Positions 9,063-58,613 of a DNA stretch of 64,000 bases are shown one piece after another. Origin of the DNA: Escherichia phage VEc33; sequence record NC_048818.1; one strand, written 5' to 3'. Numbering within the stretch: position 1 is the stretch's first letter; every line of letters starts with the position of its first letter. Below the pieces are notes generated by a model. That model was given only the letters and a program-made list of their open reading frames with translations, was not told the origin of the DNA and searched no databases. The position numbers were made by a program, and so were the translations under genes.

Positions 9063-9091
9063 ATTATACCAGTATATGCAGTAAAAAGCAA
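9063..9091 (-). promoter_or_regulatory. Sigma70-type promoter, minus strand, for phoH (-35 TTGCTT, 17 bp, -10 TATAAT)
   Basis: Plus attata 9063-9068 and aagcaa 9086-9091; divergent from the nrdD promoter. Confidence 0.6.
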
Positions 9092-9301
9092 CTACAATTT
9101 TAAATAAGCCTATGATATTGCATTTAAATAAAAAATTTGCTTGCTTTTAACTGGAAATGTATGGTATTAGATAATCATTTTATACCGCGTACATAGGCGC
9201 GTGATTATACTATTTTAAGTACAAAATAGCAAATAAATTTTTTAACAATTTGCTAACTTTTTAGCACAGATCAAAATACAATATCTAAGAGAAAAATTAT
9301 A

Positions 9302-14422: not shown

Positions 14423-14451
14423 TTGCAGGATGCCCAAAATCTTGATATAAT
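14423..14451 (+). promoter_or_regulatory. Sigma70-type promoter (TTGCAG, 17 bp, TATAAT) opening into a ~500 bp ORF-free region
   Basis: TTGCAG 14423-14428, TATAAT 14446-14451; no SD-supported ORF until GTG 14951. Confidence 0.55.
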
Positions 14452-14950
14452 ATTTATATTGAATTGAGAGACATTAGTAAAAATTGATTTTGCTAATTTT
14501 TCTTGTTTACAATCCGCGATACGGAACAGTTAGGCTGCCCCATTAAGGGTTGTTTTAACTGTTACGTGTTAGTTTTTAAACAAATAGTTAATAGAATACT
14601 TAGCGATCTGCGTCCCGTAGGAACCCTGGTAAGGCCTCGAAGCAACCTAGATAGAGGTGGTTGTGAAGTGAGACGGGAGGAGTGAAAAACTCCGAGACGT
14701 GATTCTGTAAGTTATATTGCATCTAGTATGAGCTAGTATATGAAGCATTAGGTGAGCAAATCTGGCTTAGCGGCCATCCTCAAGGATTTGTGCGGTATAG
14801 CAAAGCAGCAGCGCAGCGTGAAAGTGGAAGTTGCCACCCCACTTCAGTATTTGCGATTAATTTGTTGAGAAATTGACAGTAACAGTTGTTCTATTCTTTC
14901 TGAATAGTCCTAAAGAAAACTTATTTCATTTCCAACACAGGAGTATTGTT

Positions 14951-19874: not shown

Positions 19875-20183
19875 ATGAGCGAACAGGTAAATCAAAACTA
19901 TGAAGGACACGTTGATGACCAGTCCATCATACTTTGGGAGAAGGAGGGAGAACAAGTAAGATTAACAGTATCTGAATTTCGTGGGAATCTATACATGGGT
20001 ATTCGTTACTGGCTTCTTGATATTAATGATGAATGGTTTCCAACGAAATCTGGCTTCTCTTTTCCTTACACCCTAGAAACAACATCACAGCTTTTCTATG
20101 CGTTTACACAGATTCTTAGCGAATCTGAGGTTTTACATGAAGTACAGAAACGAGCTGAAGAACTCAAAGCCAAGAATGCCTAG
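19875..20183 (+). CDS. PC4-like single-stranded DNA-binding protein
   Basis: About 100 aa with RLTVSEFRGNLYMGIRYW...FPTKSGFSF pattern characteristic of the PC4/YdbC ssDNA-binding fold. Confidence 0.6.
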   Translation: MSEQVNQNYEGHVDDQSIILWEKEGEQVRLTVSEFRGNLYMGIRYWLLDINDEWFPTKSGFSFPYTLETTSQLFYAFTQILSESEVLHEVQKRAEELKAKNA

Positions 20184-20200
20184 TTCTTGGCTTTTTCTTT
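20168..20200 (+). terminator. Rho-independent terminator, stop codon inside the loop
   Basis: AGCCAAGAA-TGCCTAG-TTCTTGGCT then TTTTTCTTT. Confidence 0.75.
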
Positions 20201-20210
20201 ATAAATGTAT

Positions 20211-20239
20211 TTGCTTTCAACTCAGTTTTGTTATATAAT
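20211..20239 (+). promoter_or_regulatory. T5-type early promoter (TTGCTT, 17 bp, TATAAT)
   Basis: TTGCTT 20211-20216, TATAAT 20234-20239; downstream ATTTATATAAATTAATGAGAGGA. Confidence 0.7.
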
Positions 20240-20268
20240 ATTTATATAAATTAATGAGAGGATTAATC

Positions 20269-20469
20269 ATGGCAATGACAGTAACACTTCCCAAGATTCA
20301 AGCAAAACTTAATCTACTTTCCACAGCACGCATTAATTATCAGGATAACATAGGCACAGTAAATCAAAAGGTGTACAAAGATGCGTTTCTGAAAGAATCT
20401 GCTGATTTGATGGATATGGTTACACAATATAATAAAGAACTCAAGATGGAAATCGCCGATGATGAATAA
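20269..20469 (+). CDS. Hypothetical small protein (66 aa)
   Basis: ATG 20269 with GAGAGGA SD; ORF-track start 20254 is in frame but lies inside the SD. Confidence 0.5.
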   Translation: MAMTVTLPKIQAKLNLLSTARINYQDNIGTVNQKVYKDAFLKESADLMDMVTQYNKELKMEIADDE

Positions 20470-21433
20470 TATAAAAGACTTTATTAAGCGTTGTCAAGAA
20501 GCATATTATCAAGGCATGTCTTTAATCTCTGACGAAGAATATGATCGTCTGATTAAAAGATTTCCACTAGAAGAAGAGATCGGGCCTAAGGGTGATATTC
20601 CACACCTGTATCGTATGTATTCTTTACAGAAAGTTTATTATAATCGTGGAGATAAACCTCCGTTTAACCCATTAGGTCAGGTAGAAACTGATAAGTTAGA
20701 TGGTTGTGCGATTTCTCTGCTATATATTAATGGCGATTTTGTTCAAGCACTAACTCGTGGTAGCGGTATTTTAGGAAATGATGTCACAAGCAACGTAAGA
20801 TTGCTGAACATCCCCAAAAAGATTTCCCAAAAAGTACCTACTCAAATCACTGGTGAAGTTCTAATTACAAAAGAAGTAGAAAATAAACGTAACTTTGCCT
20901 CTGGTGCTATTAACCTCAAAGATAGCGATGATTTCGTACAACGTATCGGGGAAGGTGGTTTAATCTTCGTTGCATATGGTATCCAGTGTTCTGCTGAATC
21001 TGTAGGTATTACAGAAGCGTATTTAAAAGATATGCTTTGGCTGGAGAATGAGAACTTCTTAACAGTTGTTAATGTGCGTTCCTTCTTTAAATGGATTCCG
21101 ACTGATGGTAAAGTTGTTCGTATTAATGACAACAACAAATTCTTCCGAGAAGGCTGGACTAATAAATTCCCTCGCGGGGCATTCGCTATTAAAGAGGATG
21201 AAGAAGGCGAGATTACAACTCTTACTAAAGTTGAATGGCAGGTAGGGGCTTCTGGTAAAGTAACTCCAGTTGGTTATTTCGAACCGGTAATTATTGATGA
21301 TGCTACAATTGTTAAGGCGACTCTTAATAACGTTGATTATATTAACTCTCTTGATCTAGAGATCGGTTGCCAGATTCGAGTGATTCGTGCTGGTGGTGTA
21401 ATCCCGTGCATAGTAGAGCGAGTATACGATTAA
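20459..21433 (+). CDS. ligA: NAD-dependent DNA ligase, adenylation/OB part (subunit A of a split ligase)
   Basis: KxDG motif (TDKLDGCAISLLY), TRGSG, ligase OB region; C-terminal Zn finger, HhH and BRCT are missing from this ORF. Confidence 0.8.
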   Translation: MMNNIKDFIKRCQEAYYQGMSLISDEEYDRLIKRFPLEEEIGPKGDIPHLYRMYSLQKVYYNRGDKPPFNPLGQVETDKLDGCAISLLYINGDFVQALTRGSGILGNDVTSNVRLLNIPKKISQKVPTQITGEVLITKEVENKRNFASGAINLKDSDDFVQRIGEGGLIFVAYGIQCSAESVGITEAYLKDMLWLENENFLTVVNVRSFFKWIPTDGKVVRINDNNKFFREGWTNKFPRGAFAIKEDEEGEITTLTKVEWQVGASGKVTPVGYFEPVIIDDATIVKATLNNVDYINSLDLEIGCQIRVIRAGGVIPCIVERVYD

Positions 21434-21483
21434 TACATAACCCTTTGCTACCCATCTACCATATCGGAATTATAAAGTGGTTA

Positions 21484-21512
21484 TTGACATTTTCGCCGCT
21501 TAGGTATATACT
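21484..21512 (+). promoter_or_regulatory. Sigma70-type promoter (TTGACA, 17 bp, TATACT) inside the ligA/ligB spacer
   Basis: TTGACA 21484-21489, TATACT 21507-21512. Confidence 0.55.
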
Positions 21513-21576
21513 ATTATCATTCAGTTGAGGGATAGAAAGTTATGGCGAGGGTAAGCAAAGTTAGTTAAAATTGTAG

Positions 21577-21605
21577 TTGCTAAATGCTTAAATACTTGCT
21601 ATAAT
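21577..21605 (+). promoter_or_regulatory. T5-type promoter (TTGCTA, 17 bp, TATAAT) upstream of ligB
   Basis: TTGCTA 21577-21582, TATAAT 21600-21605, then ATTTATATAAATTGATAAGGAAG and ATG 21636. Confidence 0.65.
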
Positions 21606-21635
21606 ATTTATATAAATTGATAAGGAAGAAATTTG

Positions 21636-22415
21636 ATGAAAATCGAAATTCCAACACAATGTCCCTCTTGTGGTTCTAAGCTAGATCTTGTCAACGGACA
21701 ATTATTCTGTCGGAATAAGTCCAACTGCCCAGCGCAATCAAGTAAGTTAATTGAGAACTTCTGTACAAAAATGAAGTTAAAGGGCTTTGGCCCAAAAACT
21801 ATTGAGAAGCTGGAGCTGACGAAGATTTCAGAACTATTTTACCTAACCGAAGAAGATTTGGTTAGAGCCGTGGGTAGCAAGGTTGCCGCTAAGTTAATTA
21901 GCGAATTAAATACTAAAGTTCGCGGAGACATTGACTTTGGTTCAGTTCTCGGTTCTTTAGGAATCCCTCTAATTGGAGAGGTTGCAGCAAAGAAATTATC
22001 CCAAAATTGCACTAGCTTCCATGATGTGAAGGCTGACGGCAAAGCTGGAGAAAATTATAAAGCCTGGCTAAATTCCCCACAAGGCAAGGATGTTATCGAA
22101 TTACCGTGGAAATTCACAACGGGTATTAAAGGTGCTAAAGCTGAGGTCATCATCACTGATGGTCTAGTAGCCCAACCAAACGGAATAACGGTATGTATTA
22201 CCGGATCTTTGCAAGATTTTGCAAATAGAACGGATGCAACAAACTATTTAGAAGGTCTAGGATATACGGTTAAGAAATCCGTTACCAAAGACGTCAAATA
22301 CCTAATCTGTGAGGATGAATCGAAGCGTTCTTCCTCATCTTATAAGAAAGCCGAAACGAATGGGATAGAAATCCTGTCGATTAAAGAACTATTGGAGAAA
22401 AATAATAATGTCTAA
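21636..22415 (+). CDS. ligB: NAD-dependent DNA ligase, Zn-finger/HhH/BRCT part (subunit B of a split ligase)
   Basis: Cys4 cluster CPSCGSKL...CRNKSNC at the N-terminus, C-terminal BRCT-like region (VCITGSL...). ATG 21636 with AAGGAAG SD. Confidence 0.78.
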   Translation: MKIEIPTQCPSCGSKLDLVNGQLFCRNKSNCPAQSSKLIENFCTKMKLKGFGPKTIEKLELTKISELFYLTEEDLVRAVGSKVAAKLISELNTKVRGDIDFGSVLGSLGIPLIGEVAAKKLSQNCTSFHDVKADGKAGENYKAWLNSPQGKDVIELPWKFTTGIKGAKAEVIITDGLVAQPNGITVCITGSLQDFANRTDATNYLEGLGYTVKKSVTKDVKYLICEDESKRSSSSYKKAETNGIEILSIKELLEKNNNV

Positions 22416-23175
22416 ACTGAACTGGAACGTAGAAGGTGTAACCGAGTCTCTGAAAGCAAAAGCCACTGCCCTGGGTGTTGCTGTAATCTCTCAAGAACAA
22501 GTAGCTGCTATTGCTGCTGAACTGGCTGCTGAAACTGGCAAAGACGTTACCGCTCGCTCTGTTGGCTCTAAGCTGCGTAAAGAAGGTTTTGAAGTACAGA
22601 AAGCTAACGAAGTACAGAAATCCCCGTGGACTCCTGAGCAGGAAGCTGAACTGGTTGATTTCCTGAACGCTCATGCTGGTCAGTATACCTATGCTGAAAT
22701 CGCTGCTGCTGTAGCTGGTGGTCAGTTCGGTGCTAAGCAGGTACAGGGTAAGATTCTGAGTCTGGAAATGACCGCTTCTGTTAAACCAACCGAAAAAGCT
22801 GCTGCTGTTCGTTCCTTCACTCCGGATGAAGAAACTGATTTTGTTAATCAGGTTGTTGCTGGTGCTACTATTGAAGCTATCGCTGCTCACTTCGGTCGTA
22901 ATATCAAGCAGATCCGCGGTAAAGCTCTGAGCCTGCTTCGTGAAGGTCGTATCGCCGCTATGCCGGTACAGGAAACCTCAAGTGCTAAAACTCGTGAAGA
23001 TCTGTTAGAAGGTCTGGATCTGGTTAACATGACTGTTGCTGAGATCGCTGAGAAAACTGGTAAATCTGAGCGCGGTGTTAAATCTATGCTGTCTCGTCGT
23101 GGTCTGGTTGCTAAGGACTATGATGGTGCCGCTAAGCGTGCTAAACTGGATGCAAAAGCTGCGGCTGCTGAATAA
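22408..23175 (+). CDS. Putative DNA-binding protein with four internal HTH-like repeats (T5 D5-like by position and size)
   Basis: 255 aa, Ala-rich, repeated (T/S)xAEIAxxxG...K(S/A)(M/L)LS motif; strongly biased GC-rich codons. Confidence 0.5.
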   Translation: MSKLNWNVEGVTESLKAKATALGVAVISQEQVAAIAAELAAETGKDVTARSVGSKLRKEGFEVQKANEVQKSPWTPEQEAELVDFLNAHAGQYTYAEIAAAVAGGQFGAKQVQGKILSLEMTASVKPTEKAAAVRSFTPDEETDFVNQVVAGATIEAIAAHFGRNIKQIRGKALSLLREGRIAAMPVQETSSAKTREDLLEGLDLVNMTVAEIAEKTGKSERGVKSMLSRRGLVAKDYDGAAKRAKLDAKAAAAE

Positions 23176-23192
23176 TCTGGTAAATTAAACCT

Positions 23193-23228
23193 AAGGGGAG
23201 GGGGCTATGCTCCTTCCCCTTTTTGCAT
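23193..23228 (+). terminator. Rho-independent terminator
   Basis: AAGGGGAGGGG-CTATG-CTCCTTCCCCTT then TTTTGCATTT. Confidence 0.6.
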
Positions 23229-23257
23229 TTAGAAGGCACGAAAGCGTGCAAAGGAGA

Positions 23258-24730
23258 ATGACCTTGTTTAACGTGCAAGCTGTAGTGTTGAAGATGCTTC
23301 TAGCTTCCGAACAGAAGCAAATAGCATTGGAAACATTCTCAAAACTGCATAAAGATCATTTTAATGACGCTTTCTCCTCAATTTACCAAGCCGTCCAGAA
23401 TTATTATAAAAAATATAACACAATGCCGTCCATTGACGCACTTATGCTTGAAGCTAATAGGAACGCCCGCCTTTCTCAAGCTCTAGTCGTCTTAGCTAAC
23501 ACTCAAATTCCAGAAGTGAGCATGGAACAGGCACTTGAAGTCCTAGAAGCCGAATATACACAGGATTTATTCCTGAAGCTTCTAGAAACAGACGTGCTTC
23601 AAGATTTAACAATGCTGGATCAGGGAGAAATTCTCAACCGAGTTGCCTCCCTTCACTTAAAATTAGAAGAGAAAGTAACGAATACTGGAAAAGTATTCAA
23701 CGCAGATAACATGCGTATTTTCCAGAGAGAAGAAGATACCAAACTGAACTTAATCGCTCTTGGTATTTGTAATGAGTTCGACGCTCAAATCGGTTTAGCT
23801 CGCACAGAAACGTTACTGCTTGGTGGTTGGCGTGGTACTGGTAAATCCATTATCTGTTCAAACATACAGGTTCAGCAATATTTGAATGGGGATATTGCTC
23901 CATACTTCTCAATTGAGATGAAAGAACATGAAGTATTTAGACGTAATCTAGCCATGTTAGCTGGTGTATCGGCATTAGCAATGCGTAATAATACTCTAGA
24001 AGGTGCAGCTCTGTTGAGATTAGCCAGAACTAGAGCTAGAATGTTTAATGGTGGTGAAGAGCTTTTCGACAACTTCGTTAAACAGTACACAATGGCTAAG
24101 ATGAGTGATTTCTACGATATGGAGAGTAAGCTAATAGAGGGATATGAACTACATACTCCTATGATTATCGTTTATGACCCTGAACTGTCCATTACAACAG
24201 TTGACGTAGAATTAAATAAATTAGTTGCTAGATATGGGGATAAAGTTACAGTAGCTTTACTGGACTATATTAACCAAACCCGACTTCCAGACTCTAAAAC
24301 CATTGATATGTATGACTGGAAAGAACAGATGGTTGTTAGCTCGTCTTTCAAATCTATCTGCCAGAAACATAACGTGGCTGGTGTAGCTCCTTACCAGATT
24401 GATCAAGATGGTAGAACACGTATGTCAAAGGGGATTCTTGATTCCGCAGACATGGCTGCTAATCTTAATGCTGCAAAAGCTGATAATGGTCAAGGTGCTA
24501 TTATGTTTGACTTCGTTAAGACTCGTTCTTCTGATAGCGTGAAGTTTATGCCTAAAATGAACTGGGAAACCCTGCGGATGGATAACACTACCAACCTAGC
24601 AATGGAAGATATATCTCAAATGGAAGCTGAGTTCGTTATCCCTATTGAGAAGGATAAGCCGGCTCAATCTAAACGTGCTAAGAAAGACAAAGCTGAAAAT
24701 TCAACAGGTGAACAGGCCAGCGATATATGA
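23258..24730 (+). CDS. DnaB-like replicative helicase
   Basis: ATG 23258 with AAAGGAGA SD (ORF-track start 23207 is inside the terminator loop). RecA-fold motifs GGWRGTGKS and FSIEM. Confidence 0.75.
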   Translation: MTLFNVQAVVLKMLLASEQKQIALETFSKLHKDHFNDAFSSIYQAVQNYYKKYNTMPSIDALMLEANRNARLSQALVVLANTQIPEVSMEQALEVLEAEYTQDLFLKLLETDVLQDLTMLDQGEILNRVASLHLKLEEKVTNTGKVFNADNMRIFQREEDTKLNLIALGICNEFDAQIGLARTETLLLGGWRGTGKSIICSNIQVQQYLNGDIAPYFSIEMKEHEVFRRNLAMLAGVSALAMRNNTLEGAALLRLARTRARMFNGGEELFDNFVKQYTMAKMSDFYDMESKLIEGYELHTPMIIVYDPELSITTVDVELNKLVARYGDKVTVALLDYINQTRLPDSKTIDMYDWKEQMVVSSSFKSICQKHNVAGVAPYQIDQDGRTRMSKGILDSADMAANLNAAKADNGQGAIMFDFVKTRSSDSVKFMPKMNWETLRMDNTTNLAMEDISQMEAEFVIPIEKDKPAQSKRAKKDKAENSTGEQASDI

Positions 24731-58176: not shown

Positions 58177-58613
58177 TATAAGAACCTTGCGAATCCTGAT
58201 TTTATTTCAGTCTTGACTTGTGTCTTTTCTTGAGGATTCTGTAATTTGTCTTTCTGCTTTTGAACCCACACTTTTTGCTTATTAGCAGAAAATAAAGGAG
58301 GTTCTTTTGTGTAAACCTTATGTAATAGTTGGTGATGGTGTACACAAAGGGTAACAGTGTCTTCTACTAGCTCATACCTATATCGATCATAGAATGCCGT
58401 CCTATTTGAAAGGACTGTTTCTTCGTCAGTGAAATCCAATTGGAGTTCTTTAGCAAATTTTTTAACTAGTAGAGACACCGTATGGTAATGATGAAGCTCT
58501 AATTCTTCAGCACAACCGCAGATAGCACATTGAGAGTCTTTTTTATATTGACTTTTTATTCCGTCTCTCATAAGGGATATAGCATCGCGTCTATATTTTA
58601 TATTGCTTGCCAT
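58176..58613 (-). CDS. HNH endonuclease next to the terminase genes
   Basis: ATG 58613 with GGAGAA SD; His/Cys cluster CAICGC...LHHYH...CVHHH typical of HNH. Confidence 0.65.
   Translation of the reverse strand: MASNIKYRRDAISLMRDGIKSQYKKDSQCAICGCAEELELHHYHTVSLLVKKFAKELQLDFTDEETVLSNRTAFYDRYRYELVEDTVTLCVHHHQLLHKVYTKEPPLFSANKQKVWVQKQKDKLQNPQEKTQVKTEIKSGFARFL

Follow-up and report, generated by a model that had tools for sequence, protein, structure and literature searches.

The ligA-ligB locus of Escherichia phage VEc33 very probably (we put the probability at about 0.9) encodes a two-subunit NAD+-dependent DNA ligase of the T5-like phages (Demerecviridae), with tandem promoters lying in the gap between the two genes. 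This reading comes from comparisons made with the sequence of a 64,000-nucleotide stretch of the phage genome (record NC_048818.1), hereafter referred to as the window. By homology, subunit A (putative domain Ia, nucleotidyltransferase and OB domains) would react with NAD+ to give the enzyme-AMP intermediate, while subunit B (Zn finger, HhH and BRCT) would supply the DNA-clamping module for the steps that follow adenylation. The two subunits would assemble non-covalently, presumably in a 1:1 ratio, into an equivalent of LigA cut at the OB/Zn linker. The gap would be an ordinary, heavily used control region, composed of promoter P-K 28b, promoter P-K 28a (P1 and P2, respectively, in Table 1) and the ribosome-binding site of ligB, in that order.

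As T5 records annotate the promoters in the gap and papers list the ligase subunits, the finding is already known, and both the split ligase and its two promoters are ordinary for the T5 family. The ligA and ligB genes were listed as subunits in a 2013 paper (PMC3632103), and a passage of PMC1684257 cites Wang et al. 2005 on the T5 ligase. Beyond this citation and such gene listings, our search found no publication on the biochemistry of the T5 ligase or on the PDB entries 9HU3 and 9I5I.

Organization of the ligase locus

The ligase is encoded by two ORFs, and their coordinates (Table 1) agree exactly with those given in a preliminary description of the window, which had been made from the sequence alone; the adenylation, OB and BRCT domains assigned there were also recovered with Pfam, the HhH region only weakly. 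The spacer between the genes is a non-coding stretch of 202 nt. Since this is not a multiple of three, ligA and ligB lie in different frames, which excludes a read-through product in which the two would be fused into one chain. The ligB gene has its own Shine-Dalgarno sequence (AAGGAAG, 21622-21628), and an alternative TTG start codon located one codon upstream, at 21633, would give a product of 260 aa.

The first 8 nt of the D5-type gene coincide with the end of ligB, and the two genes probably constitute one transcription unit. A scan of the ligA-ligB spacer found no terminator-like site, so transcripts initiated at the ligA promoter probably read through into ligB. P1 and P2 would add further starts for the ligB-D5 unit, which would end at the terminator-like hairpin downstream of the D5-type gene, and it may be that the two promoters serve mainly D5. 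In the related Providencia phage PR1 a terminator is annotated directly 3' of ligA, and therefore read-through from ligA is not universal.

Table 1. Features of the ligase locus of phage VEc33 (positions refer to the window)
Feature	Position	Strand	Remarks
Terminator-like hairpin	20166-20194		Just before the upstream promoter
Upstream promoter, T5-early type	20211-20239	+	Upstream of the 71-aa ORF and ligA; pattern match; corresponds to T5 'putative early promoter T5P35'
71-aa ORF	20254-20469		Follows the upstream promoter and precedes ligA; window phage
[quoted passage not shown]
Variable 5' part of the spacer	21434-21465	+	pi = 0.05, coding-like; insertion zone in relatives
Ultra-conserved tandem-promoter cassette, including ligB 5' UTR and Shine-Dalgarno	21466-21635	+	170 bp; pi = 0.004
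Promoter P1 (T5 'P-K 28b')	21484-21512	+	TTGACA-17-TATACT; scan 11/12; predicted start near A21519
8-codon ORF MARVSKVS	21542-21568	+	ATG 21542, TAA 21568; GAGGGA at 21527-21532, 9 nt upstream
Promoter P2 (T5 'P-K 28a')	21577-21605	+	TTGCTA-17-TATAAT, extended -10 (upstream TG), T5 early type; scan 10/12; predicted start near A21612
ligB (NAD-dependent DNA ligase subunit B)	21636-22415	+	259 aa; Pfam, PHROG and PDB matches
D5-type DNA-binding protein/putative transcription factor	22408-23175	+	Sigma70_r4_2 helix-turn-helix match; annotated thus in relatives
Terminator-like hairpin closing the ligB-D5 unit	23193-23221	+	13-bp stem with 8 G-C pairs, then a T run

Domains of the ligase subunits and the break point

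The ligA product matched the Pfam families DNA_ligase_aden (PF01653, 1.5e-22) and DNA_ligase_OB (PF03120, 3.9e-22), and the ligB product contained a BRCT domain (1.6e-8; 35.1 bits, above the cut-off) together with a weak HhH match scoring slightly below the cut-off (24.4 bits). Among the phage protein families, subunit A matched phrog_3359 (3e-175) and subunit B matched phrog_3498 (8.8e-137). When compared with the profile of full-length phage ligases, phrog_3869 (656 positions), the two proteins covered positions 9-381 and 388-654, respectively.

The OB region of subunit A was aligned to LigA residues 284-390. In E. coli LigA (PDB 2OWO), the alignment of subunit A runs to residue 390 and that of subunit B begins at residue 402. 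As we take the OB domain of 2OWO to comprise residues 317-404 and the Zn finger residues 405-432, these alignment ends place the break at the OB/Zn junction. The KxDG motif of subunit A has the form DKLDG and matches KVDG of Thermus LigA in the alignment, in which the other nucleotidyltransferase motifs are likewise visible. Residues 2-43 of subunit A, aligned with residues 10-52 of Thermus LigA, show a YY...D..YD pattern resembling domain Ia, the N-terminal domain to which the NMN moiety of NAD+ binds; the alignment of this stretch is not significant by itself. Subunit B in full was aligned to residues 400-653 of the Thermus enzyme, and the four cysteines of its Cys4 Zn finger (C9, C12, C25 and C31) are invariant in relatives. 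These features support an active enzyme. Its domains, which in the LigA family are all contained in a single polypeptide, are distributed over two ORFs, and this defines the enzyme as a split variant; adjacent genes for an A subunit of about 320 aa and a B subunit of about 250 aa, separated at the OB/Zn break, are what is expected of the T5-type two-subunit ligase.

The best PDB matches were 9hu3_A for subunit A (1.5e-103) and 9hu3_B for subunit B (5.8e-80); 9I5I was also found. In these entries the chains carry the names 'DNA ligase (NAD(+))' and 'DNA ligase subunit B'. Two test peptides of 12-22 residues were taken from each subunit, and all four were found again in the loci of the T5-like Providencia phage PR1, so the solved structure of a relative contains both chains. 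An archaeal LigN truncated to domains Ia, adenylation and OB, the equivalent of subunit A, is able to self-adenylate but not to ligate (PMC1684257). By analogy, this behaviour fits the division of labour proposed above for subunits A and B.

Promoters in the spacer

Both promoters that the preliminary description had placed in the spacer, i.e. a TTGACA-N17-TATACT promoter and a T5-family promoter, turned out to be annotated in T5. In AY692264 they appear as 'promoter P-K 28b' (58311-58385) and 'P-K 28a' (58404-58478), corresponding to positions 21464-21538 and 21557-21631 of the window, and in AY587007 'putative early promoter T5P36' and 'T5P37' lie between dnlj1 and dnlj2. The names P-K 28b and P-K 28a come from the GenBank annotation; a literature search with the promoter sequences or the names K28a/K28b gave no match. 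Since the layout recurs in related loci and the promoters are annotated in T5 records, it is more than a chance arrangement.

In a promoter scan, P1 and P2 were the sole strong sites on the plus strand within 20000-23400. The T5-type pattern TTGCT-N15-TGnTATAAT was found nine times in the window, against 0.29 occurrences expected. Unlike the promoters of T5-early type found at other places in the window, P1 has the consensus TTGACA in place of TTGCT and is devoid of both the upstream A-tract and the TGn element; this departure is kept across lineages, and no second copy of the P1 cassette was found elsewhere in the window. Relatives infecting Klebsiella, Pectobacterium, Providencia and Vibrio, with protein identities as low as 48%, retain the P1 motif, TTGAC[AG]-17-TATA[CA]T, about 145-155 nt before ligB. 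In essentially all split loci examined, a sigma-70-type promoter is located 50-60 nt before the ligB start.

The preliminary description also reported an 8-codon ORF (MARVSKVS) with its own Shine-Dalgarno sequence in the spacer. The sequence is present, but it is not conserved in relatives, and the ORF was rejected as a gene on these grounds. It is absent or different in the relatives infecting Klebsiella and Pectobacterium, in Providencia phage PSTCR5 and in the Vibrio phages (L002/L065, L030/L066, L033/L072, L070-L075). In the Klebsiella-phage relative it would be only 4 codons long with a TTG start; the 9-codon ORF of Providencia phage PR1 is a different one, and in its sister phage PSTCR5 the ATG is replaced by ACG; and in the Pectobacterium and Vibrio relatives there is no start codon at this place. 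Within close relatives, all four substitutions observed in the mini-ORF are non-synonymous. The only conserved element after P1 is a purine-rich, Shine-Dalgarno-like motif. Motifs of this kind are a general trait of the T5 promoter cassettes in the window. We suggest that in annotations the gap should be marked with two T5 promoters and with no peptide gene.

Conservation of the promoter cassette

Nucleotide diversity, computed among 26-28 close relatives, was 0.004 in the tandem-promoter cassette compared with 0.07 in ligA and 0.045 in ligB. By codon position it reached 0.08-0.16 at third and 0.007-0.018 at second positions, which means that the cassette is more conserved than second codon positions, and the other nearby intergenic regions gave values of 0.03-0.11. 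The sole region with a diversity below that of the cassette was the ligB/D5 junction. At a threshold of at least 99% identity, the cassette was found in 414 of 437 phage records, versus 47 of 418 for a control segment of ligA of the same length (170 bp). This near-invariance may be a new result. It seems to exceed what two promoters usually need, and an additional function may reside in the cassette; possible causes include a high density of regulatory signals, a leader that folds into a structure or recombination that has homogenised the sequence.

We consider it unlikely that the cassette encodes more than promoters, whether a leader RNA or sRNA transcribed from P1, an operator over the -35 element of P2, or a translated leader mini-ORF tuning the expression of ligB and D5. 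The conservation described above speaks in favour of such a function, as does the P1 leader, whose predicted folding surpasses that of shuffled sequences both in the window (z = -4.5) and in some relatives (-5.0 in L067 and -3.6 in L069). In several lineages an inverted repeat also reaches the -35 region of P2 with its 3' arm. However, the z-score of the segment between the promoters is only -0.35 in the window, unremarkable in most lineages and inconsistent across the 12 lineages compared. The inverted repeat differs in sequence from lineage to lineage and varies in its position relative to the -35 element, and the 10-bp repeat present in the Vibrio-phage locus L070 is no longer intact in L071 and L073, which are closely related to it. 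Because of these inconsistent z-scores and the loss of the repeat between close relatives, we rejected the idea that an RNA hairpin or an inverted repeat is conserved at the -35 element of P2. No Rfam family matched the cassette: a scan of 21200-21900 at a permissive threshold gave matches at chance level only, the best of which (17.8 bits against a gathering threshold of 49) was to an unrelated sRNA. The mini-ORF, as shown above, lacks conservation, and the low diversity of the cassette is also explicable by recombination homogenisation.

Distribution of the split among related phages

The A and B genes were separate in 116 of 116 loci, of which 36 were sampled first and 80 were added using a subunit B profile; identity to the window subunit B ranged from 38 to 100%. 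Among the top 120 homologues of subunit A, with identities reaching down to 47%, lengths were 307-337 aa, the one exception being a 240-aa entry labelled as partial. The length of the spacer was 202 nt in close T5 relatives, 189-199 nt in relatives at 54-71% identity, 55-137 nt in environmental relatives and 344-1359 nt in loci with inserted genes. A megablast search with the window matched 471 phage records, the best being Escherichia phage ECOP18 (97.7%) and the remainder T5-like Salmonella, Escherichia and related phages. In over 400 phage records, the annotation gives ligA and ligB as the two ligase subunits, A and B.

The preliminary description had left open the choice between a deliberately split enzyme and the scar of a past insertion or excision, and had proposed a comparison with the ligase loci of related phages and with bacterial LigA. 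This comparison supports the former: the split recurs in every locus, the break coincides with the OB/Zn linker, i.e. with a LigA domain boundary, and a relative has been solved as two chains. The two ORFs should be annotated as ligase subunits A and B, with no pseudogene or frameshift label.

Origin of the split

That the two ORFs are an artefact, i.e. a single ligase gene interrupted by a frameshift or stop introduced during sequencing or assembly, as the preliminary description had allowed, can be regarded as exceedingly improbable. The sole point in its favour is that bacterial LigA is a single chain, whereas the same layout is present in more than 400 independently sequenced genomes, in addition to the 116 loci mentioned above. 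Moreover, the halves are separated by a promoter-bearing, non-coding stretch of 202 nt and not by a point frameshift, ligB is equipped with its own ribosome-binding site and start codon, and the solved structure of a relative has two chains. The idea of a scar, according to which a free-standing homing endonuclease, intron or intein once resided in an intact ligase gene and has since departed, gains some footing from the insertions found in the gap of relatives, and phage genes split by endonuclease insertion are known, e.g. nrdA of phage Aeh1, split by mobE. In Salmonella phage SP3 and one relative the gap is filled by a GIY-YIG gene (Pfam, 1.1e-5), and the identity between SP3 ligA and the window, at first about 97%, declines to about 72% over the last 200 nt adjoining this gene, a mosaic tract that resembles the co-conversion expected of an endonuclease. 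Other relatives carry a NADAR gene (L034), a DprA-like gene and small ORFs (Vibrio phages) or a 64-aa ORF (phage smaug) in the gap. However, these insertions are sporadic (GIY-YIG in 3 of 50,697 records) and of unrelated kinds, and they are always located between the ligA stop and the first promoter (L028, L034, L003, L036, L070-L076); the split is universal among the loci examined and much older than they are. In the window there is no endonuclease ORF between the ligase halves and no evident endonuclease remnant in the spacer, which consists mostly of promoter modules and the ligB 5' UTR, and no Rfam intron match was obtained in 21200-21900. The end of subunit A and the start of subunit B coincide exactly with the linker, and neither protein has additional residues that might belong to an intein. 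The gap is thus an occasional landing site for mobile or accessory genes, whose insertions are few in number, varied in kind and peripheral with respect to the universal promoter, and we regard the scar of a departed element as an improbable origin of the split in the window.

The split may also be a by-product of transcriptional wiring. In this case, a promoter feeding the D5-type gene would have lodged in the insertion-tolerant OB/Zn linker, and a stop and a start codon arising around it would have made two genes out of one. This proposal deals with how the split arose and does not conflict with the two-subunit ligase advocated here. It is favoured by the constant presence of the promoter in front of ligB in the split relatives, even where the spacer measures only 49-137 nt, and by the existence of unsplit orthologues. 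A search of cluster representatives yielded about 20 compact single-chain ligases (541-599 aa, 36-46% identity) next to about 50 split-type clusters. Eight of the compact forms were inspected (P0151, P0159, P0172, P0174, P0180, P0187, P0188 and P0191); they are 555-586 aa long, encoded in a single frame and situated in T5-like replication modules, where the gene order is A2-like or PC4, ligase, D5-like (about 245 aa), DnaB, primase and, where the contig reaches that far, polymerase. As the same order surrounds the unsplit ligases, one and the same locus occurs both fused and split. Two of the eight unsplit genes contain a strong promoter-like site in frame inside the linker, namely TTGACA-17-TATAAT (12/12) in L125 and TTGAAT-18-TATAAT with TG (10/12) in L120, the latter gene being present on three independent contigs. 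Both sites are collinear with the spacer promoter of L131, whose spacer is 49 nt long. On the other hand, these are predicted promoters in only two of eight genes, and the count of two sites with a score of 10/12 or higher in the junction windows, where about 0.5 would be expected, gives a Poisson tail of about 0.08, which is suggestive and not significant. A neighbour-joining tree of split and fused forms was star-like and did not resolve the order of the two states, so that a fused ancestor and a later re-fusion are not told apart. The nearest fused/split pairs are only 34-48% identical, too distant for a fused gene and a close split relative to be presented as a recent transition. The two predicted linker sites suggest that promoter placement in the linker, and not a mobile element, may underlie the split, and we consider the wiring proposal a tentative but possible one. 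Somewhat more doubtful is its extension, in which the OB/Zn linker would be a long-lived 'promoter socket' for the downstream D5-type gene, used in frame or as a spacer; the split would be its consequence, and in the T5 group the socket would have grown to a 170-bp tandem cassette, whose low variation in about 430 genomes hints at an extra regulatory or recombination role. The unsplit orthologues in the same gene order, with promoter-like sites in their linkers, may be new. Together with the hyperconserved cassette, they provide modest leads for studies on the co-evolution of promoters and gene boundaries in virulent phages.

Comparison with known systems

The closest known system is the ligA/ligB pair of phage T5 (T5p114/T5p115 in AY692264; dnlj1/dnlj2 in AY587007), which is like that of the window in its genes, their order and the 202-bp spacer. 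Compared with the T5 counterparts (L008/L044, T5_ev219), identity is 97-98% for window subunit A and 99% for subunit B, the spacer of AY587007 differs from that of the window by one base, and the flanking D5 and DnaB genes are the same. T5 is devoid of the 71-aa ORF of the window phage; otherwise only point differences were found. Providencia phage PR1, represented by PDB entries 9HU3 and 9I5I, has orthologous A and B subunits with the same break and with tandem promoters in a 192-bp spacer, but differs in the terminator after ligA and in the level of protein identity to the window (about 53-54%).

Bacterial LigA, e.g. that of E. coli (2OWO), contains the same series of domains (nucleotidyltransferase, OB, Zn, HhH and BRCT, preceded by Ia, which is putative in the window ligase) with the catalytic and Zn motifs, but as a single chain of 671 aa, compared with 324 and 259 aa in the two chains of the window ligase. 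The nucleotidyltransferase region of the latter is about 80 aa shorter, and its linker is replaced by the promoter-bearing gap. The locus can thus be seen as a natural case of a multi-domain replication enzyme made as two chains, for which the covalent OB-Zn link of LigA would be dispensable. The unsplit compact ligases of environmental T5-like phages share the compact format and the neighbourhood of the window enzyme, with 36-46% identity to subunit A, and, unlike its two ORFs, are encoded in one frame with a short peptide linker.

A further parallel is the nrdA/mobE system of phage Aeh1, in which an essential enzyme of DNA metabolism is likewise encoded by two adjacent ORFs, whose products assemble after translation. 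In contrast to that system, the window and most of its relatives lack an endonuclease between the halves of the ligase, and what stays constant in the gap is a promoter. At least one relative does, like that system, have a gene for an endonuclease in its ligase gap.

Conservation of the spacer and genes inserted in it

The part of the ligA-ligB spacer that carries the tandem promoters P1 and P2, a non-coding cassette, is more strongly conserved than the genes which surround it, with a pi of 0.004 versus 0.045-0.07 in the flanking genes. It was recovered with at least 99% identity in 414 of the 437 phage records, while for a ligA control of the same size this was the case in 47 of 418.

Several relatives carry additional genes in the ligA-ligB gap. 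In four of the loci compared, these accessory genes, among them ones for a NADAR-domain protein, a DprA-like protein (phrog_768) and a small crAss001_48-like protein along with unassigned ORFs, are in every case located upstream of the first promoter, P1. In Salmonella phage SP3 (loci L028 and L064), a GIY-YIG endonuclease gene, found in 3 of 50,697 phage records, directly follows ligA. The final ~200 nt of the SP3 ligA, adjoining this gene, are ~72% identical to the VEc33 sequence and the remainder of the gene ~97%; judging by this pattern of identity, the divergent 3' tract looks like a co-conversion tract.

Coordinates of the features discussed (L-numbers denote related ligase loci, with positions within the locus; all others are window positions)
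Feature	Location	Remarks
Close-set T5-type promoter matches	9063-9232	- strand
Close-set T5-type promoter matches	14423-14500	+ strand
71-aa ORF	20254-20469	phrog_8267; between upstream promoter and ligA, overlapping ligA start
Tandem-promoter cassette	21466-21635	
ligB/D5 junction	22336-22465	genes overlap by 8 nt
Run without variation	22383-22457	75 nt
D5-type gene	22408-23175	
SP3 GIY-YIG gene	L028:2199-2840	
Gap accessory genes	L034:2192-2809; L070:441-1644; L074:871-1703; L075:1119-1649	
Promoter-like site, unsplit ligase	L125:1650-1800	12/12
Promoter-like site, unsplit ligase	L120:6690-6840	10/12 with TG
Promoter-like sites, fused ligases	L123 +28; L126 +235; L127 +177; L128 +175	nt from first Zn-finger cysteine codon
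PR1 terminator and promoter	L132:1607-1669	

Neighboring genes and unsplit ligases

The lowest-variability 100-nt stretch of the 6.7-kb close-relative alignment (pi 0.0008) lies at the ligB/D5 junction, which includes the invariant run. The D5-type protein encoded downstream of ligB bears a helix-turn-helix similar to sigma-70 region 4 (PF08281, 1.1e-6), and the D5-like genes adjoining fused ligases give the same faint match. On the other side of the locus, the 71-aa ORF is missing in T5 itself and in many relatives, whose BLAST matches start only at ligA.

Two of the unsplit ligases, from environmental T5-like phages, contain an in-frame sigma-70 promoter-like site within the OB/Zn linker, the point of the split; in other fused ligases such sites are located deeper in the gene.

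Promoters and transcription units

The additional close-set T5-type matches on both strands suggest a frequent occurrence of tandem promoters in this early region of the window. In the record of Providencia phage PR1, a terminator is annotated immediately 3' of ligA and is followed by a promoter, therefore ligA and ligB may constitute separate transcription units in this lineage. This arrangement would differ from that of VEc33, for which we infer read-through from ligA to ligB.
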